Below, in pieces: positions 6,646 to 40,616 of a DNA stretch of 45,723 bases. Numbering within the stretch: position 1 is the first letter of the stretch; each line of letters starts with the position of its first letter. The stretch lies in contig JAJDVC010000024.1 in the NCBI GenBank assembly GCA_022826305.1, positions 1 to 45,723 of the forward strand, written 5' to 3'. The translations under genes and the position numbers were made by a program. This DNA is from Gammaproteobacteria bacterium (lineage in GTDB: Bacteria; Pseudomonadota; Gammaproteobacteria; Arenicellales; Poriferihabitantaceae). The notes beneath the pieces were generated by a model, which made no database searches, was not told where the DNA came from, and saw only the letters and a list, made by a program, of their open reading frames with translations.

Positions 6646-7686
<1,041 letters not shown>

Positions 7687-7696
7687 TCACCACTGG

Positions 7697-9764: not shown

Positions 9765-12050
9765 CTACGGCTTCTTCCGGTCCAGAGCCATCAGCAGGGG
9801 CGGCAACAGCAGGAAGTCGGTGATGAGGGCACATACGATCGCAATCGCCACCATAAGTCCGAGCGTTGCACTCCCGTCGTACCCCGAGAATGCGAACACC
9901 AGGAATCCCGCCGACAACACTATCGATGTCGTCAACAGCGCACGGCCGCAGGTGCGGAACGCCGTGTGCACGGCCTCTTCCGTAGCGGCGCCTTCCCGGC
10001 GGGCCCTCAAGTAATTGCTCATGAAGTGGACGGTGTCGTCCACCACGATCCCGAAGGCGATGACCGTCATTACCGTCCCGGCGAGGCCGACCTGACCAAC
10101 GAAATGGCCCCAGAGACCGAAGGCGACAGCTGCCGGGACAAAATTGGGCACAAGGCTGACAAGGCCGAGGCGCAGGCTGCGGAAGACCCCGATCAGGATG
10201 AACGAAATAAGGACCATGCCGATAATCGTGCCCTGCAGCATGCTTTCCAGATTCCGCTGCGTCAGATAGGCGAAAATCATGGTCATGCCCGATGCCCTGG
10301 CCGCAAACTCGGGTATGTTCGTGCGAAGCCATGACTCGGCGCGCTCATCCAGTTCCTTCAACTCCCGGGCCGAAATTCCCTCGACGGTCGCTGTCATGCG
10401 GGTGGCGGATTTGGCCACGTCAATCTGGTCGTTGAGGTCCGCCCCGAAAGGTACCGAGAGCTCGTAAAGAAGCAGATATTGCGATGCGAGTTCCTGGCTC
10501 TCCGGCAACCGATGGAATGCCGGATCGTCGCCGTGCATGTTCCGGTTCAGGCGCTTCATCACATCGGAGAAGGCACGGACATGGACGATTTCCGGCTGTT
10601 CCCGAAACCATTCCGCGAACATTTCCACCTTGCGGAGATATTCCGGTTCGGTAATGCCTCCGTCCCGCCCCGAGTCGAGCGAATAGTCCATCGAGTTCAG
10701 GCCCGTCAGATTATTTGCGATGAAATCGGTGTCGAGTCGGATCTGATATCGCTCGTCGAACTGTGTCGTCCAGTTGTCGCTCAATTCGAGGCGCGGAAGG
10801 CCGGAAAGGGACAGCAGTGCAGCGACAAGGACAAGCCACATAAGCGGTCTGCGGCGCGCAACGACGAAATTCCCCAACCGTTCGGAAAACGAAACGCCGC
10901 CACTGCGGACGGTTCGCCCCCGTAGCGGCAGGACGCAAAGCAGTGTCGGCAGAAGCGTCATGGAATAGAAAAATATGCAGAAAACGCCCAAGGCGACGAG
11001 GTTGCCGAGTTCCCGGAAGGGGGGCGAATCCGAAGTGTTCAGGCTCAGGAACCCGATCATGGTCGTAACCGATGTCAGGAACACCGGCCAGACATTGGCC
11101 CGAAGCGAGTCGGCAACGGCGATCCTCCGGTCCTTGCCGCTGCCGATGCCCGTCAGCGTCGCGGACGCAATGTGGACCGAGTTCGCGATCGCGATCGCCA
11201 TGACGATAATCGGCAGACCGCTTGTTGTCGGCCCGAGAACGACCCGGAACCAGCCGCCGATTCCCATCGTCGAAATGACGGCGAACAAAACAACGGCAAC
11301 GGTTGCAACAATAGCAAATGCGGAGCGCAAAAGAATTCCTGTGCCGACAATTATAATCAGGAATGCAATCGGCAGAAGCGTCTCGAGAAAGTATTTTGCG
11401 GCATCCGTAATGGCATGATTCAGGACCACATTGCCGGTCATGTAGTATCCGATATCCGGGTGACGCGCGCGCGCCTCGGTCAGCATTTCTTCGAGATGGA
11501 CGGCGATCTCTTCGACCGCCCTCCCTCCTGCTTCCGGCGTGGCAAAGCTGATGACCATGCCGGCCACGCGCCCGTCGAGCGACACGAGGCGGCCCGCGAG
11601 GTCGCTTGAACCGAGCGCGACTTCCTCGACCCGTGCCAGATCGGTGCTGCCCAGCGAGCGCGCATCGTCCACCAGCGGCTCGACAATGAGTTCGTCTTCC
11701 TCCGCCCGGCTATGAGAAAAATTGACCAGCGAGTCAACGCGGCTGGCATGAGGCGTCTGCCATGCCGCTTCGGTAAGCTCCTCTAGCGCGATCAATGCGT
11801 CGCGGGAAAAGATCGACCCCTCCCGGGGGGCGACGGCGACGAGCACCGTATTCGAAGCCGAATAGGTGTCCTGCAACGAGTCGTAATCGACCAATTGCGG
11901 ATTGCCCTCGCCGATGATGTCCCGGAAATCCTCCGATACCGAGATGTAATGGCCGCCAGCACCCGCCGCGAGCATGACCAGAACCGCAAGCAGGAGAACA
12001 GGCCAACGCCATCTCAGCACTAGGTCAATGTACCGTTCCAGCACCTGCAT
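9765..12050 (-). CDS. MMPL/RND-superfamily exporter (HpnN-like lipid transporter family)
   Basis: The ATG at 12050 gives 761 aa starting MQVLERYIDLVLRWRWPVLLLAVL. It has two blocks of about 5-6 TM helices, each preceded by a soluble loop, which is the typical MMPL topology. The longer track ORF overlaps the upstream gene. Confidence 0.8.
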   Translation of the reverse strand: MQVLERYIDLVLRWRWPVLLLAVLVMLAAGAGGHYISVSEDFRDIIGEGNPQLVDYDSLQDTYSASNTVLVAVAPREGSIFSRDALIALEELTEAAWQTPHASRVDSLVNFSHSRAEEDELIVEPLVDDARSLGSTDLARVEEVALGSSDLAGRLVSLDGRVAGMVISFATPEAGGRAVEEIAVHLEEMLTEARARHPDIGYYMTGNVVLNHAITDAAKYFLETLLPIAFLIIIVGTGILLRSAFAIVATVAVVLFAVISTMGIGGWFRVVLGPTTSGLPIIVMAIAIANSVHIASATLTGIGSGKDRRIAVADSLRANVWPVFLTSVTTMIGFLSLNTSDSPPFRELGNLVALGVFCIFFYSMTLLPTLLCVLPLRGRTVRSGGVSFSERLGNFVVARRRPLMWLVLVAALLSLSGLPRLELSDNWTTQFDERYQIRLDTDFIANNLTGLNSMDYSLDSGRDGGITEPEYLRKVEMFAEWFREQPEIVHVRAFSDVMKRLNRNMHGDDPAFHRLPESQELASQYLLLYELSVPFGADLNDQIDVAKSATRMTATVEGISARELKELDERAESWLRTNIPEFAARASGMTMIFAYLTQRNLESMLQGTIIGMVLISFILIGVFRSLRLGLVSLVPNFVPAAVAFGLWGHFVGQVGLAGTVMTVIAFGIVVDDTVHFMSNYLRARREGAATEEAVHTAFRTCGRALLTTSIVLSAGFLVFAFSGYDGSATLGLMVAIAIVCALITDFLLLPPLLMALDRKKP

Positions 12051-12105
12051 TCCATTCAGAACCCAACCCTGCAGTGAAGAAAGAGCGGAGCGGCGGCCCG
12101 AACCA

Positions 12106-13497
12106 TCAATCCGCTCCCGCATCCATCCGCCGGAGGAAGGACAGGCTGTCGTCTGCGGCGTTGATGCCGCTTTCCAGCGCGCCGTTGGATATCGGCACCC
12201 GCGTATAGTCGCCTGCCAGGAACAGTCCCCGTACGCCACCCAGGCCGTTCTCCCGTAGCCTTTGGACATCCCGCAACATGCCGCCCGACGCAATGCACAG
12301 CGCTTCATCCCATCTGTACGCGCGCGCGAAGCATGGGGTTTCCGGCATGGCGGGAAAATATTTCCGGACTTCCCTGATCACCTTCGCTTCGATCTCTTCG
12401 TCGCTCAGGGGCAGAAGGGCTCGCGCATTGTCCCCGACCGTGACGGCGTGCAACAGGTTCTTTCCCTCTGGCGCAACGCCCGGCGCAACACATTTGAAGT
12501 TTGCGATCACGAGGAGGAACGAACCGGAGTGCTTCGGGAAGGCGGCGGCGAGCGTGCCCGGCGGGAGCAATTCGAAGTCCAGCCCCATGACCACCTTCAC
12601 GACGGTGGAATAGGAGATCTGGCTCAATACGTCCCGGACATGCGGTGGCAGGTCGGGAACGATCCGGGTCGCAATCGTGGCCGGCGTTGCACAGATGACC
12701 GCATCCGCCGAGATGGTCTCTCCCGCTTCAGTAACGACACCCCTTGCGACTCCATCCTGACTGACGATCCGCTGCACCGGCGTCGAAAGCCTGGTGACTT
12801 CGTCCGTTGCGCGCACGAGTGCCGTAGCGAATGACCCGACACCCCTTTCCGGCAAGCAAACGCTTTCCGCCGGGTTCAGCGAAAAGTTCCACAGCACCGA
12901 CATGCCGTAGGCTGCACCGACTTGTTCCGGATATGCGGCGGTATAGGCGGCAATGTCCACATGGCTCGCCTCGTTGACATAATCGCCCAGGGAATTCCTG
13001 ACCATGAAATCCGCGAAACTTTCTTCAGTATCGAATGCCGCCAACTTCACCGGGTCTTCGATACTGAGATCCTTGCCGCGGTTCTTCATCATCCTGAAGA
13101 ACCGCAACATTTGTAACGTCGCCTTCAACGAAAAAACCCGAAAGAGGAGCAGGGTCTTCAGCGTTTCGAATCGCTGCTTCCAGGTTCCTCCCATATAAAT
13201 TCCATGAAAGCGCCCCTTGTTGTAAATCAGCCCTCCCTTTACAGAAGGTGGGCGTCTCAATGGAACGCCGAGACTCTCCGCCAGCTTCCGAACCGTGCCA
13301 TAAGACTCGATGAATATCTCGGCTCCGGTATCAATAAAGAACCCATCCACCTCGTCACCCGCAATACGGCCGCCGGCCCGGTCGGCCGCCTCGAGAACGG
13401 TAACCTCGACATCTTCCTTCGAACAGAGCAGCGAATACGCAGCGGCCAGCCCCGACGTGCCGCCCCCGACTATGACAACCTTCTTCCTGTTCGTCAT
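12106..13497 (-). CDS. FAD-dependent oxidoreductase (amine oxidase / phytoene desaturase-like)
   Basis: The ATG at 13497 gives MTNRKKVVIVGGGTSGLAAAY, a dinucleotide-binding GxGxxG at the N-terminus, and there is a C-terminal FLAGDY FAD motif. The alternative GTG start at 13524 cannot be excluded. Confidence 0.8.
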   Translation of the reverse strand: MTNRKKVVIVGGGTSGLAAAYSLLCSKEDVEVTVLEAADRAGGRIAGDEVDGFFIDTGAEIFIESYGTVRKLAESLGVPLRRPPSVKGGLIYNKGRFHGIYMGGTWKQRFETLKTLLLFRVFSLKATLQMLRFFRMMKNRGKDLSIEDPVKLAAFDTEESFADFMVRNSLGDYVNEASHVDIAAYTAAYPEQVGAAYGMSVLWNFSLNPAESVCLPERGVGSFATALVRATDEVTRLSTPVQRIVSQDGVARGVVTEAGETISADAVICATPATIATRIVPDLPPHVRDVLSQISYSTVVKVVMGLDFELLPPGTLAAAFPKHSGSFLLVIANFKCVAPGVAPEGKNLLHAVTVGDNARALLPLSDEEIEAKVIREVRKYFPAMPETPCFARAYRWDEALCIASGGMLRDVQRLRENGLGGVRGLFLAGDYTRVPISNGALESGINAADDSLSFLRRMDAGAD

Positions 13498-13542
13498 TTC
13501 AGGAAATCCCGTAATCCGGGGCACCTTGCCCCGCTACACAAA

Positions 13543-14724
13543 TTACCATGGACTCTGCTCCGCCGCCCGCACATGGTCCGGCATCCTGTAGCTGATGCCT
13601 TCCTTGTCGTACTGGGCCGAGTCGAAAATCTGGGAGAAGTTGTCCCGCTCGAACATGATCTTTCCACTCAAACGCAGCCGCAGGAATTCCTTTGCGCGGT
13701 AATAGGGCAGGGTGCCGAGGGTCATGATTTTCGGATACTGAAAGATGTCGGCAAGCCGGTTTCCGATCAGGGTGCGGGAAAGCCTGTAAGCATAGCGCGC
13801 AAGTTTCTGTCTTTCAGCGTCTCCCTCCAGACCTGCCATGATCGGGATGGCCTTGAACACCGAGTTGGCGAGTGAGACCGAGTCGTCGTCCGGCGGCGGT
13901 TCGCACAGATGGGCGACACGGTACAGCCGCCTTGCCCTGTCCTCGTCGGTGAAGAGCAGGGCTTCCGGGACGCCCAGGATGTGGCCTACATAGCGCCATA
14001 TGGCGGTGATGCTTTCGCGCTCCTCGGCAGTGATCTTCGACCCCATCTTCATGGCGTGTTCGAACTGGCGGATCGAGAACGTAAATAGCGAAATACCGCC
14101 GATATGCGCCGCACTGAGCGGTGTGCCCCAAGCCTCATGGTTCCATGCGTCGGATTCTGCCAGCAATTTCCTGGTGCGCGCATGAATGAACCGGATGCGC
14201 ATGCTGACCTTCCATCCGTCGCCGTCCCGCAGCAGGCCGCCCGGGAAATAGGTCTCGATCATGTGACGGTTGTTCTGCCTGAGGCGCCGCACGGCTCCCG
14301 GCCCCAGATTGGGCACCCGCCCGGTGATCGAAAAGGATTTGGCGACCAGCGTCCCGAAGCCCTCCACCGCGCTGCCGACGGCGTAGGCAATCAGCATGTT
14401 GGTCATGTTGCGATAGAAGGCGGACTGTCCCGCCTTGAAAGCCTCGAAGTCGACCCAGTCCGGTACCTGCACATTGTCGAAGAAATCACGGAGCAGTTGC
14501 GGCGCCCGGCGAAGCGTGTCTTCATCGTCCTGCTCCACGCCGGCCCGGATAAAGCGGTGCATCTCCGGCGGCGGCAGCGAAGCCAGCTCGTCCATGACTG
14601 GATCGAGTTCGGGATCACCGATAGTGGTGTGCCGGATATAGTTGTCGGCAACCTTCCGGTCGACTGTCCGTGCTGCGGCGTAACCGTCGAGATAGGCAGA
14701 CGGGGCATTCAGCACACCGAGCAT
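13543..14724 (-). CDS. MpaB-family oxygenase (DUF2236; latex-clearing-protein/rubber-oxygenase superfamily)
   Basis: The ATG at 14724 is preceded by GAGGAGG with a 5-nt spacer. The 393-aa product has DUF2236-like blocks (RRLRQNNRHM, VSMRIRFIHARTR, GTPLSAAH). Family assignment is from recognition only. Confidence 0.7.
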   Translation of the reverse strand: MLGVLNAPSAYLDGYAAARTVDRKVADNYIRHTTIGDPELDPVMDELASLPPPEMHRFIRAGVEQDDEDTLRRAPQLLRDFFDNVQVPDWVDFEAFKAGQSAFYRNMTNMLIAYAVGSAVEGFGTLVAKSFSITGRVPNLGPGAVRRLRQNNRHMIETYFPGGLLRDGDGWKVSMRIRFIHARTRKLLAESDAWNHEAWGTPLSAAHIGGISLFTFSIRQFEHAMKMGSKITAEERESITAIWRYVGHILGVPEALLFTDEDRARRLYRVAHLCEPPPDDDSVSLANSVFKAIPIMAGLEGDAERQKLARYAYRLSRTLIGNRLADIFQYPKIMTLGTLPYYRAKEFLRLRLSGKIMFERDNFSQIFDSAQYDKEGISYRMPDHVRAAEQSPW

Positions 14725-14758
14725 GCCGGCCTCCTCGTCCGCGCACCGCCAGAGCGCT

Positions 14759-14773
14759 CCCCCCCCCCCCCCC
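14759..14773. repeat. Homopolymer tract C15 (G15 on the coding strand of the downstream operon)
   Basis: Counted directly: c at 14759-14773, flanked by t at 14758 and g at 14774. It lies 35-49 nt upstream of the MpaB-like ATG. Confidence 0.95.
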
Positions 14774-15018
14774 GACCAGTTTCCTGTCGAGGTTGGTCGT
14801 CCAATCGCCTTCCGGATCGACCAGCCCGAGTTCCAGCACTGTCTCGGCAAACCATCTTTACGACACCTGCGATATCACCCAATGCATAATTCTCGATCTA
14901 CATCCGCCCGAAACAGCATACCACCCATGAACCTGAAAGGCCCGGCAACATGAAGCCCCTTTCAGCTTATTCCTGCCAATCATACATCATCCCTATCCGT
15001 GCTGACCATATTTGAGCA

Positions 15019-25357: not shown

Positions 25358-25944
25358 CTTTCGACAGCCTGTGCAGGGAAATCCGGCAGTGCACCCGATG
25401 CGCCTCCCACCTGCCCCGCGGGCCCAATCCGGTCTTCCGGGCGCAGCCGGAGGCCAGAATCCTGATAGTCGGGCAGGCGCCCGGGATCCGGGTTCACACC
25501 ACCGGTATCCCGTTCAATGATCCGAGCGGCGATCGCCTGCGTGCCTGGATGGGGGTGGACAGCGACGTATTCTACGACGACTCCCGGATTGCGCTGGTGC
25601 CCATGGGATTCTGCTATCCCGGCACCGGGCCGAACGGCGATCTTCCGCCGCGGGCCGAATGCGCCAGGACCTGGAGAACACCGTTGCTTGCACACCTGTC
25701 AAACATTGTCCTGACCCTGGCGGTAGGGCAGTATGCCATCTCCTGGCATCTTGGAGCGGCAATGCAGAAGAACCTGACCGAAACCGTGAGACACTGGCGG
25801 TCCCATGGTCCGGCGCTGATTCCCTTGCCGCACCCGAGCCCGAGAAACAATCTCTGGCTCGGCAGGAACCCATGGTTCGAGCAGGAAGTTGTTCCGGACC
25901 TGCAGAAAGCAGTCTCCCGGGCGCTGGAAAGGCGCCGTCCATGA
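25354..25944 (+). CDS. Uracil-DNA glycosylase superfamily protein
   Basis: The ATG at 25354 overlaps the dsbB stop (ATGA). The product is 196 aa with a GQAPG motif and a C-terminal HPSPRN motif typical of UDG-fold families 4-6. Confidence 0.75.
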   Translation: MTFDSLCREIRQCTRCASHLPRGPNPVFRAQPEARILIVGQAPGIRVHTTGIPFNDPSGDRLRAWMGVDSDVFYDDSRIALVPMGFCYPGTGPNGDLPPRAECARTWRTPLLAHLSNIVLTLAVGQYAISWHLGAAMQKNLTETVRHWRSHGPALIPLPHPSPRNNLWLGRNPWFEQEVVPDLQKAVSRALERRRP

Positions 25945-26041
25945 CGGCGCCGATCAACCCGTCGGCAACCGGTTTCTTCGCCCGGAAGCACTGATGCGGA
26001 AACCGGCCCGCCCGGGGGGCGCGCCCTGATCGGGATCGCTG

Positions 26042-27190
26042 TCAATCCTTCAGATCCGGTACGGCAGTGCGCTCCGCATACCAGCAGGCGAAGTTTCCGA
26101 CACAGGGCTCGAGATCCGAGAACCTGCCCTGGGTCGCACCCGGGGAAGCCAGACCTGCCTGCTGCCTTTCCAGGACCGGGATATCCTCCGCTATCGCACT
26201 ATCCACCCGTGCACGGTATGATCTGGCCCTTTCCGCATAATCGGCCCTGCGTGTCGTGGCAGAGGGAAAGCACACGCTCTGGACAACCCGCGTAAGCACC
26301 GGGGACAACGGGAAAACGTGATACCCCCACAAGCAGTCCATGCTGGCGGCAAAGGTCAGGTTCGGATAAACCCAGGTATAACGGGTTCCCGAGCGTTCCT
26401 GACCCTCCAGAAGCTCCATTACGGGGAAAGCCTCATCCTGATTCTCGTCCAGCAGTCCGGGATTGCTGCGGGTAATGCCGAACTGCGACGTGAACTGGCC
26501 GAATACCGGGTCAGGCGGATCCGGTTCACAGTAGTGCTGACTGATCGAATCCGGATGCACATAGGGTAAATGGTAGTACTCGTTGAACACTTCCATGAAC
26601 AGTTTCCAGTTGCACTTCACATCGAAAGTCCGAGTGGCGCCGAGTGCCAGGTCTTCCAGGGACCAGCGCCGGTGAAGATCGGAAAAGTCATCCAGCCAGC
26701 TCCCGAGCGGCTCGGGATCCTCCTCGAGACTGACAAAGACATATCCCCCGCAGGTGTCAAGCGGAAATCGGCGCAACCTGTGGTCACACTCGCGAAACCC
26801 GGTTGCCTGCTCCATTCTGGATGCAGAGATCAGCTGTCCGGCATGATCATAGGTCCAGCCATGGAAAGGGCAGACCAGCATCCTGGAGTTTCCGGAACCA
26901 TCAGCAATCAGGCTGCCCCGATGCAGACAGGTATTGGACAGTGCGCCTAACCGAAGATTCTCCTGCCGCACGACAACTATCTGCGCCCCGGCAATTTCCA
27001 GCGCCAGATAGTCACCGGGCTGCTTCCACTGATCCTCCCTGCCCACACACAGCCATCCCTTGCGGAAAACGCGATCCAGTTCATGTCCGTACCATGCGCT
27101 GTCGTGATAGCAGGCCGGCGGCAGGGTCCGGGAACCCGAGACCGGATAATGGACATCTGCCAGTGCTTCCAGCATGTCACCTGAAAACAT
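26042..27190 (-). CDS. Rieske [2Fe-2S] non-heme-iron oxygenase alpha subunit (choline-monooxygenase-like subgroup suspected)
   Basis: The ATG at 27190 shares 1 nt with the stop of the upstream antiporter-like gene (TGATG). Rieske motif is CLHRG-x-...-CPFHGW (C-x-H-x16-C-x2-H). The mononuclear iron motif is NEYYHLPYVH (H-x4-H). Confidence 0.82.
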   Translation of the reverse strand: MFSGDMLEALADVHYPVSGSRTLPPACYHDSAWYGHELDRVFRKGWLCVGREDQWKQPGDYLALEIAGAQIVVVRQENLRLGALSNTCLHRGSLIADGSGNSRMLVCPFHGWTYDHAGQLISASRMEQATGFRECDHRLRRFPLDTCGGYVFVSLEEDPEPLGSWLDDFSDLHRRWSLEDLALGATRTFDVKCNWKLFMEVFNEYYHLPYVHPDSISQHYCEPDPPDPVFGQFTSQFGITRSNPGLLDENQDEAFPVMELLEGQERSGTRYTWVYPNLTFAASMDCLWGYHVFPLSPVLTRVVQSVCFPSATTRRADYAERARSYRARVDSAIAEDIPVLERQQAGLASPGATQGRFSDLEPCVGNFACWYAERTAVPDLKD

Positions 27191-28878
27191 CAGAATCCCC
27201 GATGCAGGTAGAGCACTGCCAGCAGTCCCGCCAGGAACACCATGGTGATCAGGACCATGCCCCGGACATGCCAGGGCATCAGAAGATCGTAGGACTGTCT
27301 GCGCAGGAACGGAATCATCAATGCCACTGTGCCCGTAACCACGGAACGGACCCGGCTGCCGAGGGTCACGGCAGTTCCGTACAGGAGACCGTAAAACGCA
27401 GGCCATGCCTTGCGGTAGAACCACTCGGCATCCAGATTTGTGGATTTCAGTTCCGGAGGATAAAGCCCTGCCAGCTGTAGCCACACGAAGGCCAGGGCAG
27501 AGAAGAACAATAGCTGGACCTGCTCGACGACATGGGGAACGTCAAACGGCATGTAGTCCACGGCAAAGGGAAGATGGCCGTAAAGCAGCCATGGGTAACT
27601 GCCGATGAACACACACAGCCCGGCGGCAAGGGACATGGCGACCAGCATATGCCGGGGGGCTTCCGCAGGACGCTTCCCGGAATCATGGGCAAAAAACGCA
27701 AAGTACGGTATCTTGATGCCCGCATGGTGGAACACACCTGCCGACGCGAACAGCATGGCCAGCCAGACCAGTTCATGGTGCTCTGCCAGCAATGCCGACA
27801 TGACCATGGACTTGCTGACGAACCCGCTGAACAGCGGGAATGCCGAAATCGATGCAGCCCCGACCAGGCAAAGCCCTGCAGTCCCTGGCATGGTCCGAAA
27901 CAACCCGCCGAGTTCGGACCCGCGGATTTCCCCTGTCCTGAACAGGACAGCCCCCATGGTCATCATCAACAGTCCCTTGAAGATGACATCATTGAATGCG
28001 TGGGCAACTGCACCATTGATTGCCAGCTCCGTTCCGATCCCCACGCCACAGACCATGAACCCGATCTGGTTGATCATGCTGTATCCCAGCACGCGACGCA
28101 GGTCATTTTCAATCACCGCATAGAATATGGGGAAGCAGGCCATGATCGCCCCGACATAGATCAGCAGATCCAGTCCGGCGAATGTTCTCGCCAGCGCATA
28201 GACAGCGACCTTCGTGGTAAATGCGCTCAGGAATACCGCACCACTGGGTGTTGCCTCCGGATAGGCATCCGTCAGCCAGTTGTGCAGCATCGGGAATGCC
28301 GCCTTGATTCCGAAAGCCGCAAGGATGAAGACGGCACCGGGATGATCCAGGTCCATTGGCCCCACGTCTATCCCGCCAGTCTCGTAAAACAGTACCAATG
28401 CCCCGGTCAGGAGCAACACGCCGGATAGAACCTGGAAGACCAGATACCGGATGGCCGCCCGAACGGCCCTGGAGGTTCCCCTGGCAGTGATGAAGGGAAC
28501 GGAAGCCAATGCCAGGCATTCCCAGAAAACGAACATGGTGAGCAGGTCCCCGGCATATACAACCCCCAGCGCACTCCCCGGGTACAGCAGTGCGGCAACC
28601 TGCTGTGGCCGGTCCGTAACATGCCAGGAAAATATGATGCCGATGATGGCGGCCACATGGAACAGCACGCCGAAAATGAAACTCAGGCGATCCATGGTGA
28701 AAGGCACCAGATCCAGTCCGAACAGGCCTATCTGCCAGACAGCATCGGGGCTGATCGACAACAGATTGACCAGCCCGGCAACCGGCACAGCCAGCAGGAC
28801 GTGACGACGCAGGGAGGCGGGAGTGAGCAGGGCTGCCAGCGCCCCGGCATAGAGAATCAGGAAGGGCGCGTTAATCAT
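27190..28878 (-). CDS. MrpA/MrpD (NuoL/M/N)-like proton-antiporter subunit, third copy
   Basis: The ATG at 28878 is preceded by GAGGA. The 562-aa polytopic protein has the antiporter-core pattern (LLTMFVFWECLALASVP). Confidence 0.8.
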   Translation of the reverse strand: MINAPFLILYAGALAALLTPASLRRHVLLAVPVAGLVNLLSISPDAVWQIGLFGLDLVPFTMDRLSFIFGVLFHVAAIIGIIFSWHVTDRPQQVAALLYPGSALGVVYAGDLLTMFVFWECLALASVPFITARGTSRAVRAAIRYLVFQVLSGVLLLTGALVLFYETGGIDVGPMDLDHPGAVFILAAFGIKAAFPMLHNWLTDAYPEATPSGAVFLSAFTTKVAVYALARTFAGLDLLIYVGAIMACFPIFYAVIENDLRRVLGYSMINQIGFMVCGVGIGTELAINGAVAHAFNDVIFKGLLMMTMGAVLFRTGEIRGSELGGLFRTMPGTAGLCLVGAASISAFPLFSGFVSKSMVMSALLAEHHELVWLAMLFASAGVFHHAGIKIPYFAFFAHDSGKRPAEAPRHMLVAMSLAAGLCVFIGSYPWLLYGHLPFAVDYMPFDVPHVVEQVQLLFFSALAFVWLQLAGLYPPELKSTNLDAEWFYRKAWPAFYGLLYGTAVTLGSRVRSVVTGTVALMIPFLRRQSYDLLMPWHVRGMVLITMVFLAGLLAVLYLHRGF

Positions 28879-29101
28879 AATGATCCTCGTCCCGCATGAG
28901 CGGTTTGCGCATCCATGTCGCGACCAGCACGAGAATGACACAGGCTGCGAACCCGTACCAGGCGAAGAAACCGAAAAAATTCCACCAGTGCTCTCCGTGC
29001 TTGTTCACGACCAGATCCAGCAGGACCAGGACTCCGCACAGGAGAAAAAAAACTTTCAGCCACTTCCCGAGTCCCGGGGACAGGTTATCGAACCGTTTCA
29101 T
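28871..29101 (-). CDS. Small two-TM membrane protein embedded in the Mrp-like operon
   Basis: The ATG at 29101 overlaps the upstream stop (ATGA), giving 76 aa: MKRFDNLSPGLGKWLKVFFLLCGVLVLLDLVV...FFGFFAWYGFAACVILVLVATW. It overlaps the downstream gene by 8 nt. Confidence 0.6.
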   Translation of the reverse strand: MKRFDNLSPGLGKWLKVFFLLCGVLVLLDLVVNKHGEHWWNFFGFFAWYGFAACVILVLVATWMRKPLMRDEDHYD

Positions 29102-30549
29102 GGGGACGCCATCCTCCGGGTGAGATCGGCCAGCAGCCCCTGCAGATCTCCCGACAGGAAGAAGAGCGCGCAACTCAGCAATGCGGTCAGCACCAGGGGA
29201 CCGATCAGCGCTGGCCGGCATTCCAGCCTGGCTTGAGGCTGTGGCGCGGGAAGGAAGAAAGCGCGCAGGGGAACAGCAAGCAGGTAATACACGTTCATCA
29301 GCGAACTCAGCATCAGGACGCCCAGGATCGCAACCTGTCCCAGTTCAAGCGCTCCCAGTGCAAGATACCACTTGCTCCACACCCCCCCTGTCGGCGGCAG
29401 GCCGGCTATGGACAGGGATGCGACGAAAAAGGCACCGAACGTCCAGGGCATTGACCTGCCCAGGCCATTCATGTCCGAAATGTACTTCTTCCCGGAGCAT
29501 ATCATTATCGCGCCAGCACAGAAGAACAGCGTGATCTTTCCAAACGCATGCATCACGATATGCATTCCGCTTCCGATCAGGGCCAGGGAGTTGGCCATCA
29601 GTGCTCCCGTGACAATGTAGGATAGCTGGCTGACCGTGGAATAGGCCAGCCTTGCCTTGATATCGTCCTGCCTCATTGCAATGAACGAGGCGACAAGGAC
29701 GGTAGCCGCCGGAAACCAGATGAGAATATCGCGCAGGAACACGACATTCAGGAGGTCGTATCCGAAAATGTACACGGTTATCTTGAGCATGGAGAATACC
29801 CCTGCCTTGACCACCGCGACAGCATGCAGCAAGGCGCTGACCGGGGCTGGCGCCACCATGGCCCTGGGCAGCCATCTGTGCAGCGGCATTACCGCGGCCT
29901 TGCCAATCCCGAAGACAAACAACACCAGCAACACTGCCACCAGGGCGGGCGAAGTGGACGCAAGCTGTCCCCCCGGAACAAAGGACAGTCCGGAACCGTA
30001 ATTGCCGACCAGTACAATGGCAAGCAGGAACAGCAGCAGGGAACTTGCCAGCAGTACGCCCAGATAGACCCGGCCTGCAGACACCGCCTCCCGGGTCCGG
30101 CTGTGCGTGACCAGCGGCCAGGTGGAAAAGGTCAGCATTTCATAAAACAGGAACAGGGTAAACAGGTTCTCCGAAAAGGCAATTCCCATCGCACTGCCGA
30201 TCGCGACACAGAACAGGGCATGAAACCGGGTCTGATGCGTATCCCGGCACGCATCCAGATAGCTGACGGCATAGATCGAGGTAATGGGCCACAGTATTCC
30301 TGCAGTCAGGCCGAAAACCAGGCCGAGCGGCTCGACATGGAATGCGATGCTGAGCCCGGGAAGCGTCTCGAACAGCACCTGAACTTCCTGGTATCCGGAC
30401 AGGTTCAGGGCAATATGACCTACCATGGCAAGGTTCCCGATACCCGTCAGGACCAGTACCAGATTTCTCAGGCCGACATGCCTCCGGGCCAAAACAATCC
30501 CTATCGCCCCGAGCAGGGGAATCAGTACGACCGCGGAAACCGGAATCAC
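29098..30549 (-). CDS. MrpA/MrpD (NuoL/M/N)-like proton-antiporter subunit, second copy
   Basis: GTG start at 30549 in a GTGA overlap with the upstream stop. The product is 483 aa with the LFTLFLFYEMLTFSTWPLV core motif. Confidence 0.8.
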   Translation of the reverse strand: MIPVSAVVLIPLLGAIGIVLARRHVGLRNLVLVLTGIGNLAMVGHIALNLSGYQEVQVLFETLPGLSIAFHVEPLGLVFGLTAGILWPITSIYAVSYLDACRDTHQTRFHALFCVAIGSAMGIAFSENLFTLFLFYEMLTFSTWPLVTHSRTREAVSAGRVYLGVLLASSLLLFLLAIVLVGNYGSGLSFVPGGQLASTSPALVAVLLVLFVFGIGKAAVMPLHRWLPRAMVAPAPVSALLHAVAVVKAGVFSMLKITVYIFGYDLLNVVFLRDILIWFPAATVLVASFIAMRQDDIKARLAYSTVSQLSYIVTGALMANSLALIGSGMHIVMHAFGKITLFFCAGAIMICSGKKYISDMNGLGRSMPWTFGAFFVASLSIAGLPPTGGVWSKWYLALGALELGQVAILGVLMLSSLMNVYYLLAVPLRAFFLPAPQPQARLECRPALIGPLVLTALLSCALFFLSGDLQGLLADLTRRMASP

Positions 30550-32036
30550 GAACCGTTTCCGGTGAGGGCGGCAGCCGCCAGCCCAGCCCACCCGGTGACC
30601 AGGGACGCATGAAGCCCGAACCAGAGCACCAGGCCCATTACCACGACCAGCGGGAACCACTCCACGAACGCAAGCGGAGAACGTGTCTGCTGAAGCGGGA
30701 TATCGGCCGGTTTGGCCCAGAGAATCTCGACAATTCTCCAGACATAGGCGGCACTGGCCAGGGATCCCGCCAGTACGGGGATCGCCAGCCACCACCACCC
30801 GCGCTCAACAACGGCAGAAACCAGCACCCACTTGCTCACGAAGCCGGGGGTGCCGGGAAGACCGATCAGTCCCAGTCCGCCGAACAGCAGGGTGTAGCAG
30901 GCGAATCGGTGTGTATGGGCCACACTGCCCAGATGCCTGATACGCGCCGTACCTGTCCGGGCAATCAGTATCCCGACAGCCATGAACACGGCTACCTTGA
31001 TGATGGAATGGTTGAAAAGGTGTACGAGCGCTGCCGCAACCCCGGCGCCGGTACCAAGTCCGATCGCCAGGATGATGTACGAGATCTGGGCCACGCTCGA
31101 CCAGGCGAACATGCGCTTCAGGTTCGATTCCCTCAAGGCGATCAGAGGCGCAACCAGCATGCCGGAAATGGCGCATGCGACCAGGACGATGTCTACAGGA
31201 ACCGAGAGAGCGTGGTCTACGCCGAACAGGTCATGGACAAAACGCAACAGGACATACAGGGCGACCTTGGTAGCAGTTCCGCTGAGCAGGACGGTAACGG
31301 AATTCGGCGCGAAACTGTAGGCATTCGGAAGCCAGTCATGAAGCGGCATCATCGCACACTTGATGCCCAGGCCGATAATCAGGAACGCCAGCGCCATGAT
31401 CACTGTCCTGTTGGCGCCCCGTGCATCGATCCTCTGGGCCAGATCGGTCAGGTTCAGCGTCCCGGTATGCATGTACAGCAGTCCGATGGACAGCAGGATA
31501 AACGTCGCGCCGACTGCCCCCATGACCAGATAGCGATACGAAGCAAGCAGGGCCCTGGGATCGCGACCGCAGCCGATCAGCACATAGGTCGCAAGGGAAC
31601 TGATCTCGAGGAACACGAAGACATTGAATGCGTCGTTGGTCACCACCATGCCGTTCAGGCCGGCCATGCACAACAGCCAGGCAGCGTAGAATGCGGCATG
31701 GGCTCCGCGCCCGAGATTGTCGTCGTTCCTGCCCAGGGCAAAAACTGCCGCAGCCAGGTTCACGAGGTTTATGGTAATCAGCACGAATACCGTAAGCATG
31801 TCGATACGGTATTCGATCCCCCAGGGCGGCGGCCAGCCACCCAGCGCATAGGAAATGACCCCGTCCGGATACACCTGCCCGGCCAGCATGAGCGAGATCG
31901 AGAGCATCACGAGCGCAGTCAGGATCAGCGCGGTCCTTGCCAGGAACCGGCTGCCCGCAAGGACGCACAACGCCGCCACGAGCAACGGGACCACGACCTG
32001 CAGGACCGGCAGGTGTTTCAAGGCGGATGAAATCAC
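30546..32036 (-). CDS. mrpD: MrpD-like (NuoN/M-like) proton-antiporter subunit, first copy
   Basis: GTG start at 32036 in a GTGA overlap with the mrpC stop. The product is 496 aa with the FNVFVFLEISSLATYVLI core motif. Confidence 0.8.
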   Translation of the reverse strand: MISSALKHLPVLQVVVPLLVAALCVLAGSRFLARTALILTALVMLSISLMLAGQVYPDGVISYALGGWPPPWGIEYRIDMLTVFVLITINLVNLAAAVFALGRNDDNLGRGAHAAFYAAWLLCMAGLNGMVVTNDAFNVFVFLEISSLATYVLIGCGRDPRALLASYRYLVMGAVGATFILLSIGLLYMHTGTLNLTDLAQRIDARGANRTVIMALAFLIIGLGIKCAMMPLHDWLPNAYSFAPNSVTVLLSGTATKVALYVLLRFVHDLFGVDHALSVPVDIVLVACAISGMLVAPLIALRESNLKRMFAWSSVAQISYIILAIGLGTGAGVAAALVHLFNHSIIKVAVFMAVGILIARTGTARIRHLGSVAHTHRFACYTLLFGGLGLIGLPGTPGFVSKWVLVSAVVERGWWWLAIPVLAGSLASAAYVWRIVEILWAKPADIPLQQTRSPLAFVEWFPLVVVMGLVLWFGLHASLVTGWAGLAAAALTGNGS

Positions 32037-32407
32037 GGCACGATTTCCGGTTCCACCTCGGGCCTGTCGAAAATCTCGTCCTCGTCGACCGTGCCGTATG
32101 CCCTGCGGATTCGCACGACCAGGGCCAGACCTACCGCGGTCGTGGCAACGCCCACCACAATGGCCGTCAGGATCAGGACATGCGGCAACGGATTGCTGAA
32201 ACGGCTGATCCCGTCGGCCAGAATCGGCGCATGTCCGTTTTCCACCTTGCCCATGGTGATGAACAGCAGGAACACTGCTGACTGGAACATGTTCAACCCT
32301 ACCATTTTCCTGATCATGTTGCGGCTGTCGAGAATCATGACCAGGCCGCAAACGAACAGCCCTATGGCAACCCAGTAGTTGAACAATCCCGGTATCGCGT
32401 CAGTCAC
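32033..32407 (-). CDS. mrpC: MrpC (NuoK-like) subunit
   Basis: 124 aa with three TM helices and a NuoK-like sequence (LNMFQSAVFLLFI..., LTAIVVGVATTAVGLALV). GTG start overlaps the upstream gene by 8 nt. Confidence 0.82.
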   Translation of the reverse strand: MTDAIPGLFNYWVAIGLFVCGLVMILDSRNMIRKMVGLNMFQSAVFLLFITMGKVENGHAPILADGISRFSNPLPHVLILTAIVVGVATTAVGLALVVRIRRAYGTVDEDEIFDRPEVEPEIVP

Positions 32408-33380
32408 CGGTCTGCCCGCTGCGGTTGAAGCTGACGAAAAGGGACAGCATGGTAAACGCTACCGTAATGCCGACTCCGATCTCAATCAGGAGAATGCCCA
32501 GATGCTGCCCGTCCGTGCTGGATTGCGCGAGTACGGAGTAGTCGAGATACTTCCCGCCTCCAAGCATGGATGCGACGCCAACCAGTCCGTAGACCAGTAC
32601 ACCGCCCGCCATGCCGCGGATGATCCACCGCTCGGAAATGACCCCTTGCATGATGCGGGAATCCGTCAGCAAGGCCAGCGTGATCAACCCGGCGCCCAGG
32701 ATCACACCGGCCTGGAATCCGCCGCCGGGGCCATAGTCACCATGAAACTGCACGTAAAGCGCAAACAGGATCACGAGGGGAATGATCCGCGGCATGACAA
32801 CCCTGAGAATCGAATTCGAAATCAGGCCATCCCCGGAATCCTGTCGTGCATGTCCCGCAGCCAGAAGAATCAGTACCGACGTTCCCGCCGTGAAGACCAC
32901 GACCACCTCGCCAAGGGTGTCGTATCCCCGATAGCTGGCCAGCACCGAGGTCACAACATTGGGAATGCCGATTTCCGTTCCGGAATCCTCGAGAAAGCGT
33001 GTCACCAGATGGGTATGAACCGGCACTTGCGGATCACCGTACAACGGCATGTCAAAGGTTCCGAATACCAGAAGCAGTCCGGTTGCCAGGGCAACGACGG
33101 TCGCCAGCGGGCCGGGCCACACGAACAGGCGGCCCGACTCGTCGTCGGGATGAATGACACAGAGAAACAATACGGTCGAGATTCCGGCACCCACCGCCGC
33201 CTCCGTAAACGCCACATCAACCGCATCCATGATGACGAACAGGGAACAGATCGTGAAACTGTAGAGTGCATTCAGAATGATCGTGTTCAGCGGGCTGTTG
33301 CACCGAACCAGCATCAAGGCCGATACCGACAGCACCACCAGCAGGCCCATGTCGACCAGGGCGTTGATTGTCGTAATCAT
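32400..33380 (-). CDS. mrpB: Fused MbhD/DUF4040-like plus MnhB-domain subunit (MrpB-like)
   Basis: The ATG at 33380 overlaps the mrpG stop (ATGA), giving 326 aa. The N-terminal part is DUF4040-like (AVDVAFTEAAVGAGIS). The central MnhB signature is NVVTSVLASYRGYDTLGEVVVV. Confidence 0.78.
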   Translation of the reverse strand: MITTINALVDMGLLVVLSVSALMLVRCNSPLNTIILNALYSFTICSLFVIMDAVDVAFTEAAVGAGISTVLFLCVIHPDDESGRLFVWPGPLATVVALATGLLLVFGTFDMPLYGDPQVPVHTHLVTRFLEDSGTEIGIPNVVTSVLASYRGYDTLGEVVVVFTAGTSVLILLAAGHARQDSGDGLISNSILRVVMPRIIPLVILFALYVQFHGDYGPGGGFQAGVILGAGLITLALLTDSRIMQGVISERWIIRGMAGGVLVYGLVGVASMLGGGKYLDYSVLAQSSTDGQHLGILLIEIGVGITVAFTMLSLFVSFNRSGQTGD

Positions 33381-33700
33381 GGTGCGCACTCCTCGCCCGC
33401 ATCCTTCCCGGCCCCCGACTCCTCTTGCGATGAATCCGGCGCCGCGCGCGCCAGCGCATGAGAAACCACAGGGGAAAGCACCATGGTCAGGATCACCAGC
33501 AGGATCAGCTTGAATCCCGCAACCCAGGTATCGGCATGACACAACAGACCGGCGACCACCAGCCAGATGCCCAGTGTATCGATTACCCCCGCACCGTGCA
33601 GGCGACAGAAGAAATCCGGCAACCGCAACAGCCCTACACTCCCGACCATCACAACGCAGGCGCCGGATATCATCAGCAGTCCGGCAATCAGTTCAATCAT
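33377..33700 (-). CDS. mrpG: MrpG subunit
   Basis: The ATG at 33700 overlaps the mrpF stop, giving 107 aa. The MnhG pattern is present: GSVGLLRLPDFFCRLHGAGVIDTLG. Confidence 0.82.
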   Translation of the reverse strand: MIELIAGLLMISGACVVMVGSVGLLRLPDFFCRLHGAGVIDTLGIWLVVAGLLCHADTWVAGFKLILLVILTMVLSPVVSHALARAAPDSSQEESGAGKDAGEECAP

Positions 33701-33971
33701 GACCCCGAACCCGCCTGGCGCCGAAATACCGCACCAGCGCCAGGCTGCCCACATAATTGATCAGGGCGTACAGCAATGCAATGTCAACATACTCCGGATG
33801 GCCAGATGCCTGGACATAGACGGCGATCAGCAACACGGTCTTGGTGCCGAATGCATTGATCGCAACAATCCGGTCGAACACGGTGGGCCCCAATCCGGAC
33901 CGCACCAGCGAACAGGCCATTGCACAAAGCAGCAGGACGAAGACCGGCAGGTAAAGCCACTCAGCCATCAT
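33693..33971 (-). CDS. mrpF: MrpF subunit
   Basis: The ATG at 33971 (or 33968) overlaps the mrpE stop, giving about 92 aa. The MnhF pattern is present: GPTVFDRIVAINAFGTKTV...ALINYVGSLALVRY. Confidence 0.8.
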   Translation of the reverse strand: MMAEWLYLPVFVLLLCAMACSLVRSGLGPTVFDRIVAINAFGTKTVLLIAVYVQASGHPEYVDIALLYALINYVGSLALVRYFGARRVRGHD

Positions 33972-34467
33972 GACCGCCCCCGTCTGGATGGTCCGCCGAA
34001 AAGAGCGTCTCGACCCGGTTGAGCATGGCATCATCCAGCAGGTCTTCCCGGGACCGCCTCGTCAGGGCATGCACGCGGATCTTCCGTACCGGCATGCCGG
34101 TACTCACCGTGCCCGGGGTAAGCGTAATGGAGTTGGCGTAAACAACCCGTCCCTGTTCATCCAGTTCCCGCGTCGTGACATCAAAAAATCCCGGAGATAT
34201 CCTGCCCGGGGCCAGAATTGCCCTGATCACCTCGACATTCGACTTCAGGACTTCGGGCATCAGCCATGCAAGGTAGCGAAACACGGGAACCGGGCGCAGG
34301 GTGAGCGGCTCCAGTCGGACAAGCGAAGCTGTCCGGCCGTAGACCCCCAGCGCAACCACGCACGATGCGCCCCCCAGCGACATCAGCAACAGGGTGAAAT
34401 GCCCGGAGAGCAGGCACCAGACGGCAACAAGCACCAAAAGACAGGCTATTCGGCTTGAAACAAGCAT
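33961..34467 (-). CDS. mrpE: MrpE subunit
   Basis: 168 aa with an ATG start. MnhE pattern is present: two N-terminal TM helices, then YLAWLMPEVLKSNVEVIRAIL and SITLTPGTVS. Confidence 0.82.
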   Translation of the reverse strand: MLVSSRIACLLVLVAVWCLLSGHFTLLLMSLGGASCVVALGVYGRTASLVRLEPLTLRPVPVFRYLAWLMPEVLKSNVEVIRAILAPGRISPGFFDVTTRELDEQGRVVYANSITLTPGTVSTGMPVRKIRVHALTRRSREDLLDDAMLNRVETLFSADHPDGGGHDG

Positions 34468-35003
34468 TGTCGGAATTCGTCAATATGCTCCGGCTACGGC
34501 CCTGGATACCGGCCTTTCCTGATCCTCTCCTGACTTGCCATGGGCCAGCGCCAGCACATTGGGCCGACCTCATGCCCTGATCAGCCCGCATTCCATCCAG
34601 CTGTCATGACCTGCGGGATCATTTCCTCCCATACTACCTAAATCCAGCCGGATTTTCATCCGCACATGCAATCGGCCGGAACGCCGAGGTCGTATCGAGA
34701 GGCAGCATTCCGGATTCCGCTGATCAGCCTGGTCGACACGCGGGGCCGGATTTTCCAGACTCCGTGCACAGCAGGGCCTGCGGAGTGATCCGGTTCCGCA
34801 TGGCCATGCGACATCATTGGTCTTGTCGATATCATGCATGCAGGCAGGATAAAAACCCGGATCAGGGGTATTCAGCAGTCAAGCAGTCTGGCACAATGCA
34901 GGCGCGGGAAACGGAGGCAGTCTGAAACGGATTCTTGCATGTGTCACTTTCAGCCAATCCACCCCGCGCGACACCGCTGATCTTCAAAAGCCACGGGCCC
35001 ACG

Positions 35004-36038
35004 ATGACGATGACTGTAATTGACCTGCGCAGCGATACGGTGACCCAGCCCTGTCCGGCAATGCGCAAGGCCATGTACGAGGCCGAACTGGGCGACGATG
35101 TATACGGAGAGGATCCGACCGTACGTACCCTGCAGGAAGCACTGAGCGAACGGACCGGCCATCAGGCGGCCCTGTTCTTCCCTTCCGGCACCCAAAGCAA
35201 TCTGGTGGCCCTGCTGACCCATTGCCAGCGGGCAGACGAATACATCGTTGCACAGAATGCCCACACGTACAAGTACGAAGGCGGCGGCGCAGCGGCGCTC
35301 GGTGGGATCCAGCCCCAGCCAATCGAAAGAAGCGAAACCGGCATGCTCGACCTCTGCAGGGTGGAAGCGGCGATCAAGGCGGATGACTTCCATTTTGCCA
35401 GAACCCGGTTGCTTGCCCTGGAAAACACCACCACGGAAGGGGCGGCGGTACCCGCCGAATATCTTGCGGACGCCCGTGCACTGTGCGACAGGCACGGCCT
35501 GTCCCTCCACCTCGATGGAGCGCGGGTCTTCAACGCAGCCGTCTCCCTCGAGGTGGATGTGGCGGAAATCACCGGGGTCTGCGATAGCGTTTCCATCTGC
35601 CTGTCCAAGGGACTGGGCGCGCCCGTCGGTTCGGTACTGTGCGGCAGCACCGAATTCATTGATCGTGCCCGAAGGTGGCGCAAGACGGTGGGCGGTGGAT
35701 TGCGCCAGTCCGGAGTCCTGGCGGCGGCCGGCCTGTTTGCGCTGAAAAACAATGTCGACCGGCTGTCCGATGATCATGCACTGGCCAGGTACCTGTCCGA
35801 CAAGCTCGCGCAGTTCGACGACCTGGAACTCGCTTACGGCGGCGCCCGGACCAATATGGTGTTCTTTTTTCTCAGGAGCGGCCGCTATGCCGCGCTGCAG
35901 GAATTCGGCAAACGAAACGGCGTCCTGTTCGGCGGCCGGAATCCGGTACGCATGGTGACTCACAAGGATCTGACATCCGGCGATATCGACGAGGCCGTCA
36001 ATCGGCTGAGGGGATTCCTTGAACCGGAATCCTCCTGA
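35004..36038 (+). CDS. ltaE: Low-specificity L-threonine aldolase
   Basis: The ATG at 35004 (or 35010) gives [19 protein letters not shown]...[11 protein letters not shown]...FPSGTQSN, with the Lys site in [14 protein letters not shown]. Confidence 0.88.
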
Positions 36039-40001: not shown

Positions 40002-40616
40002 ATGCTGATAAATCTTTCCGGACTCAGTACACCGGATGTGTACTTTACCATGACTCAAACGATACTGCCCAGGCCCATAGCCTGGGTGTTGAGTGAAAAC
40101 GCGAACGGCAGCCTGAACCTTGCGCCGTTTTCCTACTTCAATGCCGTATCCAGCGACCCGCCCATGGTCATGTTCTCCATTGGCCTGCAGGACGACGGTT
40201 CCTTCAAGGATACCCTGACCAACCTGACGGAGCGGCCCGAGATGGTGATTCATATCGCCAGTTGTCACCAGCTCGCCGACCTGAACCTGAGCTCCGCGAC
40301 GCTTCCACCGGGCGTGTCCGAAGTGCAGGCCGGAGAACTGGACACCGCTGCGGTTGACGGTTTCCGACTGCCCCGCCTGTCCGATTGCAGGATTGCATTC
40401 ATGAGCAGGGTGGACAGTATCCAGCGCATCGGCAACAACCGCCAGCACATCGTATTCGCTGAAATCCACTCCGTTCATGTTTCGGACGACTGTGTCCAGC
40501 GCGACGAGCATGGCAGACTGGTGGTCCTTGCCGACAGAATCGAGCCGCTTGCACGACTCGGAGCCAGTCAATACGCGGCATTCGGGGACATCATGACCGC
40601 AAAACGCCCGGCCTGA
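40002..40616 (+). CDS. Flavin reductase family protein (FMN-binding split barrel)
   Basis: 204 aa with the typical signature RPIAWVLSENANGSLNLAPFSYFNAVSSDPPMVMFS. Confidence 0.82.
   Translation: MLINLSGLSTPDVYFTMTQTILPRPIAWVLSENANGSLNLAPFSYFNAVSSDPPMVMFSIGLQDDGSFKDTLTNLTERPEMVIHIASCHQLADLNLSSATLPPGVSEVQAGELDTAAVDGFRLPRLSDCRIAFMSRVDSIQRIGNNRQHIVFAEIHSVHVSDDCVQRDEHGRLVVLADRIEPLARLGASQYAAFGDIMTAKRPA

Follow-up and report, generated by a model that had tools for sequence, protein, structure and literature searches.

Multisubunit antiporters of the group-3 Mrp type are defined by the lack of mrpA and often carry several mrpD genes (PMC8415708). For instance, the stand-alone mrpEFGBB'CD system of Pyrococcus furiosus acts in Na+-dependent pH homeostasis (PMC8415708), and Na+/H+ antiport was shown in E. 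coli for the cyanobacterial group-3 operon mrpCD1D2EFGAB of Aphanothece halophytica (PMC5703873). A related gene cluster is present on the minus strand of contig JAJDVC010000024.1 (assembly GCA_022826305.1) of a gammaproteobacterium placed in the Arenicellales, of which a stretch of 45,723 nucleotides (nt), hereafter the window, was analysed. Its genes for E, F, G, B, C, D1, D2, x and D3, running from 34467 to 27190, most likely specify a stand-alone Na+(K+)/H+ antiporter of the group-3 Mrp type (CPA3), with three proton channels, and the gene after them, for a Rieske oxygenase, is probably carried along as a passenger. Homologues of MrpB, C, D, E, F and G lie there in one operon with three mrpD-like genes and without a full-length mrpA, which is the composition of a group-3 system.

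The P. furiosus Mrp shares with the window the E-F-G-B-B'-C-D order and the lack of both a full-length mrpA and a redox module (PMC8415708), and its B and B' proteins correspond to the two halves of a fused B protein in the window. It has one antiporter-like subunit, whereas the window has D1, D2 and D3, the last with a predicted lateral helix, in addition to x and to the B/B' fusion. The A. halophytica operon also has several MrpD-like subunits as well as small separate "A" and "B" proteins, but its gene order differs and it holds two antiporter-like subunits instead of three (PMC5703873). Other clusters are described in genome annotations, namely MrpEFGBBCDD of the Solemya velum symbiont, annotated as a Na+/H+ antiporter (PMC4287430), Mnh/MrpEFGBCD1D2D3 of Verruconatronum alginivorum, annotated likewise (PMC13274419), and the group-3 Mrp of Ca. 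Nitrospira alkalitolerans with two extra NuoM/NuoL-like genes (PMC7784846). According to the excerpts consulted from these three papers, gene order and the reading as a multisubunit Na+/H+ antiporter are as in the window and come from genome annotation only; the same excerpts mention neither x, nor a lateral helix in D3, nor an attached Rieske gene.

The arrangement is thus already recognised, as group-3 Mrp in genome papers and by two subtype-specific NCBIfam models. What is added here is modest: D3 as the subunit with the lateral helix, an account of how MrpA is split, the unnamed protein x, and an insertion history that explains the Rieske gene.

Compared with the group-1 and group-2 Mrp complexes of Bacillus, Anoxybacillus and Dietzia (7qru, 6z16, 7d3u; PMC7419157), all functional parts are shared, that is MrpA(N), MrpA(C) and B to G, and the Glu and Lys residues are kept. 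The window operon has neither a single MrpA uniting the core with the C-terminal domain nor the classical A-B-C-D-E-F-G order: MrpA is split between D3 and the N-terminal half of the B fusion, the order is EFGBCD and onwards, and there are an extra antiporter-like subunit and x. Complex I's membrane arm (NuoL/M/N/K/J) is alike in that its antiporter-like subunits number three and one of these carries TM15, a lateral helix and TM16 (TM, transmembrane helix), and it shares the NuoK-like MrpC and the NuoJ-like MbhD/MbhE domain (homology map in PMC7419157). It differs in that NuoH, NuoA and the Q-module are lacking in the window, where MrpB, E, F and G are found instead.

Subunits of the complex and the division of MrpA

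All ten products of the operon were typed by Pfam, and by NCBIfam with its model cut-offs. The identities proposed in the initial annotation were recovered, with matches to MNHE, MrpF_PhaF, PhaG_MnhG, an MbhD/MbhE/MnhB fusion, Oxidored_q2, three Proton_antipo_M proteins and a Rieske protein. The B fusion and D3 exceed the cut-offs of models specific to the subtype, while the models that MrpC and MrpG pass are broader family models. The large subunits D1, D2 and D3 were further assigned by ranking bit scores against solved chains and by fold comparison with Foldseek, using an AlphaFold2 model for D3.

None of the proteins of the operon joins a Proton_antipo_M core to MbhD/MbhE in the Pfam and NCBIfam searches, and a full-length mrpA is absent in this sense. 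The missing parts were nevertheless found in two other products. D3 is divergent in sequence when ranked against solved chains; it passes the NCBIfam model NF009310/PRK12668 "Na(+)/H(+) antiporter subunit D" with 666 bits (cut-off 564). Its AlphaFold2 model (predicted local distance difference test, pLDDT, 84.9) contains, beyond the 14-helix core, helices at residues 447-469, 484-532 (49 residues) and 538-560. The combination of TM15, lateral helix and TM16 is the signature of NuoL and MrpA, an extension that is absent from MrpD and NuoM; the lateral helix of NuoL is longer than the approximately 49 residues of D3. In the same way, full-length, query-normalised Foldseek TM-scores of D3 were 0.79-0.82 with MrpA, NuoL and NdhF versus 0.69-0.71 with MrpD and NuoM. 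D3 is therefore predicted from its model to carry TM15, lateral helix and TM16 of the NuoL/MrpA type.

The second part is held by the B fusion, which passes NF009161/PRK12507 (333.7 bits, cut-off 272). Residues 13-307 of this protein are collinear with residues 605-901 of the Dietzia MrpA, itself an MrpA-MrpB fusion; residues 92-322 align to MbsE and residues 186-311 to MrpB. By these alignments its N-terminal half is the MrpA C-terminal domain (MbhD/MbhE, NuoJ-like), joined to MrpB. In 25 of 59 other loci the alignment to the B protein falls into an N-part and a C-part piece, apparently two genes, and this matches B and B' of the archaeal system. Given the extension of D3 and the alignments of the fusion, the two proteins jointly hold every part of a group-2 MrpA'. 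MrpA is split over two genes and not missing, so that "no MrpA", as the initial annotation put it, is a matter of gene boundaries: a single mrpA gene is indeed lacking, and the components of its product are present, divided between D3 and the B fusion.

The two remaining large subunits are of different kinds. D1 found its best solved relatives in MbsH (205 bits), MrpD (176) and MbhH (164), from which it is classed as MrpD-type. D2 matched best to MbhH, MrpA, NdhF and ND5, by which it leans towards MrpA(N)/NuoL; the lateral helix is absent from it. Pairwise identity among D1, D2 and D3 is 24-28%, and the three look like ancient paralogues with no recent triplication, contrary to the "triplicated pump subunit" that had been suggested. 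The stand-alone antiporter with three pump subunits that formed the first option of the initial annotation is otherwise supported; the triplication, the loss of MrpA and the unusual character attached to it have to be corrected.

A glutamate in TM5 and lysines in TM7, TM8 and TM12 (E144, K226, K257 and K402 in D1 numbering) are invariant across D1, D2 and D3. The corresponding residues of D3 (E120, K192, K223 and K356) are invariant in 48 homologues. The TM5 glutamate and the lysines of TM7, TM8 and TM12 are the charged residues of functional proton channels.

Conservation of the nine-gene unit and proposed mode of action

A profile of D3 retrieved more than 560 relatives among species-representative genomes, and 80 of these loci, designated here by L numbers, were fetched as the survey set. 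Gene order was counted in the 54 loci with at least 6.5 kb of upstream sequence. The order E-F-G-B-C-D1-D2-x-D3 was exact in 52 of them, which span Gamma- and Alphaproteobacteria, Desulfobulbaceae, Verrucomicrobiota and Pirellulaceae, with Zhongshania, Shewanella, Pseudoalteromonas and Thalassotalea among the cultured hosts of the unit. With this frequency, with PRK12507 and PRK12668 both passed and with a name in the literature, the arrangement is neither unusual nor undescribed, as had been supposed.

The two exceptions, L032 and L042, are both split operons. L032 (9561-11680) holds x-D3 only, flanked by an aminotransferase gene and a PRPP-synthetase gene, and L042 (6380-11626) holds C-D1-D2-x-D3, downstream of MCP, STAS and SpoIIE/HATPase partner-switching genes. 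The other Mrp genes of both must be elsewhere in the genome or missing.

The small protein x belongs to this unit. It was present in 78 of the 80 loci, always immediately upstream of D3, and in the two loci without a detected x the sequence breaks off less than 60 nt ahead of D3. Two TM helices, a loop with the conserved motif HRH..H.WE and a tail reading MRK.LMR.EDYYD characterise it. Direct scans of Pfam and NCBIfam assigned it to no family; its profile gave nothing at E values up to 10 against PDB chains, MbhI included, and only scattered matches, all below the family score cut-offs, against Pfam. Similarity to MbhI or other solved chains was undetectable. At least 2795 database clusters contain x; among those listed, the named ones are almost all "hypothetical protein" and none bears an Mrp or antiporter name. 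It was found in cultured Kangiella, Thalassotalea and Aurantivibrio, among others. Its conservation marks x as a real gene, and its product looks like an unnamed tenth type of Mrp subunit.

Neighbouring genes were typed by Pfam in other genomes (62 downstream and 47 upstream, 109 in all). They match 141 Pfam families, the commonest being Usp with four occurrences, and the genes flanking the unit on both sides are unrelated between genomes. As the neighbours vary in this way, the nine-gene unit appears self-contained. Hydrogenase, NuoB, NuoD and NuoH are not among the 25 commonest neighbour families, each of which occurs in at most 4 of the 109 neighbours, and at this depth the survey indicates no recurring redox partner. 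A homologous gene of about 290 amino acids (aa), on the same strand and just upstream of mrpE at about 3.1-4.2 kb, was seen in four Alteromonadales/Oceanospirillales-type loci (L054, L067, L078 and L079) and might encode a lineage-specific regulator.

The order of the unit raises the question of a respiratory origin. MBH and MBS of Thermococcales (6cfw, 6u8y) share the Mrp-like gene order, MbsE likewise joins MbhE and MrpB parts, and MBS has a second antiporter-like subunit, MbsH', with TM15-16 as in D3. The nine subunits could in principle be the membrane arm of an MBH-, MBS- or complex-I-like complex served by a redox module from another part of the genome, for which one can cite the order, the split MrpA parts and the fact that the B fusion has both MbsE and MbsD in the group of its best matches. 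We consider this very improbable. No hydrogenase or sulfur-reductase module of the MbhM/J/K/L/N type accompanies the genes, and no NuoH/MbhM-like subunit and no NuoB/NuoD-like module was detected by Pfam in the ten products or in the flanks of the window. To our knowledge, every member of the MBH/MBS/complex-I type depends on the NuoH/MbhM-like subunit as its interface. The absence of NuoB, NuoD and NuoH from the 25 commonest families of the 109 neighbours also speaks against a detached module, and so does the identical gene order of the stand-alone Mrp of P. furiosus (PMC8415708). The MBH-like order, in which a redox hint had initially been seen, is real but shared with that antiporter: it is not diagnostic and gives no evidence for redox coupling.

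For the stand-alone antiporter, monovalent cation/H+ antiport by the nine-gene complex is predicted, and a mechanism can be outlined with the homology map of Steiner and Sazanov, in which NuoL corresponds to MrpA(N), NuoM and NuoN to MrpD, NuoK to MrpC and NuoJ to MrpA(C) (PMC7419157). The NuoL-like core, extended by TM15, lateral helix and TM16, would come from D3 and the MrpA(C) part from the N-terminal half of the B fusion, with D1 as the equivalent of MrpD. D2 would be one extra antiporter-like subunit and would bring the proton channels to three in a row, like those of the NuoL-M-N arm in complex I, while x would act as a small accessory subunit with two TM helices, specific to the subtype. 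Following the map, the row D3-D2-D1 would be clamped by the lateral helix of D3 and continued by MrpC with MrpA(C), then by the Na+ end formed by MrpB, E, F and G. Driven by the proton-motive force, H+ would enter through all three antiporter-like subunits, linked by the conserved Glu/Lys chain, and this entry would be coupled to extrusion of Na+ (or K+) at the MrpC/B/E/F/G end. Through the extra channel the H+/Na+ ratio may be higher than in a two-channel Mrp, which, if true, would help in marine settings that are alkaline or rich in sodium.

A common Mrp subtype is clarified in this way, with three antiporter-like subunits, a predicted lateral helix, an MrpA(C)-MrpB fusion and a conserved subunit of two TM helices. 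It occurs in the easily grown marine genera Zhongshania, Thalassotalea, Kangiella and Shewanella, which makes it a useful experimental target. Its structure and stoichiometry would help to explain how coupling changes when pump modules are added in the Mrp/complex-I superfamily.

The Rieske oxygenase gene and its probable insertion history

The last gene of the operon encodes a Rieske non-heme-iron oxygenase alpha subunit, of the soluble, alpha-only type. Its cluster motif CLHRG...CPFHGW and its iron-binding motif NEYYHLPYVH (His-x4-His) are conserved in the alignment. Among solved structures, the protein is closest to the soluble quaternary-amine oxygenases CntA (carnitine monooxygenase; 107 bits over residues 22-243) and Stc2 (stachydrine demethylase), together with the related monooxygenase/demethylase 4qup. 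The best NCBIfam match is the glycine-betaine monooxygenase GbcA (NF058607), with 140 bits against a cut-off of 670 and over the N-terminal 200 residues only; an equivalog-level match to a member of known substrate, such as GbcA, was not obtained. Rieske oxygenases of the CntA/Stc2 class form soluble trimers and are supplied by a separate reductase. No cognate reductase of the FNR type with a 2Fe-2S domain is present in the 45.7-kb window, where the sole reductase candidate is a small Flavin_Reduct gene at 40002-40616 that is syntenic in outgroups without Mrp too.

The junction with D3 reads ...GGATTCTGATGTTTTCAGGTGACATG... and the oxygenase may start at the ATG at 27190, with a 1-nt overlap, or at an ATG 15 nt later; the latter start yields 377 aa, as in many homologues. 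Under either start, at most 14 nt separate the D3 stop from the Rieske start. A Rieske gene directly after D3 was found only in the window and in L002, L005, L082, L083 and L084. L002 and L005 are metagenome-assembled genomes (MAGs) of Ca. Poriferihabitaceae and are the sole such cases among the 62 surveyed species-representative loci that extend far enough downstream; their D3-Rieske gaps are 53-159 nt. L082, L083 and L084 are metagenome or MAG relatives with 64-92% D3 identity and a junction of 4-nt overlap or 12-nt gap. The Rieske gene is 3.8 kb from the operon in L004 and absent in L003.

The closest relative, L082 (92% D3 identity; 1985-7979 of a long-read contig), has D1 and the Rieske gene each split into two open reading frames (ORFs), and x is uncalled. 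A Rieske pseudogene was considered there and rejected: with D1 also split and x uncalled, assembly indels are likelier.

Outgroups give the history of the site. In four other gammaproteobacterial loci (L085-L088), whose Rieske proteins are 49-52% identical, the chromosomal surroundings match those in the window, with ProS, asparaginase II and Beta_elim_lyase followed by the Rieske gene, but Mrp genes are absent. Since the lyase-Rieske neighbourhood exists there without Mrp, the Mrp cassette was presumably inserted upstream of a resident Rieske gene. The simplest history places this insertion between the lyase and Rieske genes in an ancestor of the sponge-associated Arenicellales-like clade. 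The nine-gene cassette would have entered between the resident Rieske gene and the divergent lyase gene, and the Rieske gene would be read through from the Mrp promoter without belonging to the machine. Its product is most likely a co-transcribed passenger outside the conserved Mrp unit that acts alone in the cytoplasm. In an Acidiferrobacterales MAG (L085, 5369-7149, and L086, 1803-3583), a gene for a 213-aa YdjM-like membrane protein precedes the Rieske gene and overlaps its start, so that the oxygenase is a downstream operon member in other settings too.

The second option of the initial annotation, a coupling of the Mrp module to the Rieske enzyme, is contradicted by these data: the gene is attached in one clade only, neighbours elsewhere are variable, and the outgroup synteny points to insertion. 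A Rieske gene not conserved beside such clusters had been named there as something that would refute the idea, and that is what the neighbourhood survey found. Direct coupling, in which the Rieske protein docks on the three-pump module and ion translocation is either powered by its redox turnover or powers it, is barely credible. All that favours it is the translational coupling with D3, seen in the window and in a few relatives. Besides the rarity of the adjacency (2 of 62 loci, the window and three relatives from metagenomes or MAGs being additional), the Rieske gene was at the site before the cassette, and Rieske proteins with and without an adjacent Mrp are collinear, of equal length, with cluster and iron ligands intact and no extra segment. 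The absence of a NuoH-like interface subunit and the established nature of the enzymes of this class, as soluble trimers with a separate reductase, add to this. If true, direct coupling would amount to a new class of Mrp-based redox machine without NuoH, NuoB and NuoD; as matters stand, a false lead is removed, in that a pump-plus-redox operon reads as a cassette inserted beside a resident gene.

A looser link, functional and not physical, is unlikely as well, with more to be said for it. The Rieske gene would have been recruited into the Mrp transcription unit of the sponge-associated clade for salt or osmotic adaptation; for example, a quaternary-amine osmolyte might be oxidised or demethylated by the Rieske enzyme while Mrp extrudes Na+. 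Such recruitment is compatible with the insertion history and fits the kinship with CntA, Stc2 and the related monooxygenase/demethylase, as well as the best NCBIfam match to GbcA. In the window, L083 and L084 the adjacency, as an overlap of 1-4 nt or a gap of 12 nt, persists down to 64% D3 identity, and the gene is retained in L083 although the genes beyond differ. However, the GbcA score is so far below its cut-off that a substrate is not assignable, and neither a reductase partner nor an osmolyte transporter is encoded in the window. The link is also broken within the clade (L003, L004), and the gaps in L005 and L002 permit independent expression. Moreover, retention can mostly be explained by general synteny, UDG, DsbB, SDR and BacA being kept too.

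Several points weigh against the stand-alone antiporter with a passenger oxygenase, which we nevertheless prefer. The kept D3-Rieske adjacency, down to 64% D3 identity and including L083 with its different genes further downstream, could reflect selection for co-expression instead of pure inertia. The antiporter function is deduced from homology, and in the literature outside subscription-only papers no transport assay or structure of the three-pump, x-containing variant was found, only genome annotations. The positions of D2, D3 and x in the complex are conjectural. Direct results are the domain content, the conserved nine-gene unit, its varying neighbours, the architecture predicted for D3 and the synteny around the insertion. 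We also infer the ion specificity, the stoichiometry, the order of subunits in the membrane and the lack of physical contact with the Rieske protein.

Operon layout and flanking genes

Ten minus-strand genes follow each other from 34467 to 26042 in the ORF map and by reading of start and stop codons, with overlaps of 11, 8, 4, 8, 4, 4, 4, 8 and 1 nt in the order from E to Rieske. The coordinates and all nine overlaps agree with those initially reported. An independent public gene call on an identical metagenome scaffold gave matching genes, and only E (158 aa) and F (91 aa) start later there. The features are collected in Table 1.

Table 1. Features of the Mrp operon and its upstream region, in order of transcription
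Feature	Positions	Strand	Basis
Presumed promoter region of the operon, intergenic between the divergent threonine-aldolase-like gene and mrpE	34468..34934	-	Position of the Beta_elim_lyase gene
mrpE, 168 aa (alternative start: 158 aa)	33961..34467	-	Pfam MNHE 1.7e-23
mrpF, 92 aa	33693..33971	-	Pfam MrpF_PhaF 3.7e-18
mrpG, 107 aa	33377..33700	-	Pfam PhaG_MnhG_YufB 1.3e-23; TIGR01300 80.1 bits, cut-off 63.1
B fusion (MbhD + MbhE + MnhB), 326 aa	32400..33380	-	Pfam; NF009161/PRK12507
mrpC, NuoK-like, 124 aa	32033..32407	-	Oxidored_q2 8.7e-24; NF005624 119.6 bits, cut-off 95
D1, MrpD/MbsH-type antiporter-like subunit, 496 aa	30546..32036	-	Proton_antipo_M 1.1e-60
D2, additional antiporter-like subunit, 483 aa	29098..30549	-	Proton_antipo_M 8.7e-49
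x, conserved unnamed protein with two TM helices, 76 aa	28871..29101	-	Conservation across loci; family-less
D3, MrpA(N)/NuoL-type antiporter-like subunit, 562 aa	27190..28878	-	Proton_antipo_M; NF009310/PRK12668
Rieske non-heme-iron oxygenase alpha subunit, 382 aa	26042..27190	-	Pfam Rieske + Ring_hydroxyl_A

The operon is bordered downstream by a convergent UDG gene and upstream by the divergent threonine-aldolase-like Beta_elim_lyase gene (34935-36038). A scan of 25500-35200 for consensus promoters and terminators gave sites no more numerous than in shuffled sequence, and none between D3 and the Rieske gene. No tRNA gene marking an insertion site was found. The base composition of the cassette equals that of its flanks except for a plus-strand excess of A over T, that is a T-rich coding strand, as is typical of membrane-protein genes; no signal of recent transfer is visible in it.

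The remaining genes of the window are of the housekeeping type and include ProS, asparaginase II, DsbB, BacA, UbiE/UbiJ/UbiB, HemB, Adk and MoeA/MoaC. At 3081-6351 on the minus strand, UbiE (Ubie_methyltran), a UbiJ-like protein with an SCP2 domain and a UbiB-like ABC1 kinase are followed by HemB and Adk, an ordinary housekeeping set. Further along the same strand (9765-14850), an MMPL/sterol-sensing-domain transporter (847-aa ORF) stands with a flavin amine-oxidase/phytoene-desaturase-like gene and an MpaB/Lcp-like oxygenase-domain gene, and this trio may form a cluster for lipid or isoprenoid modification and export.

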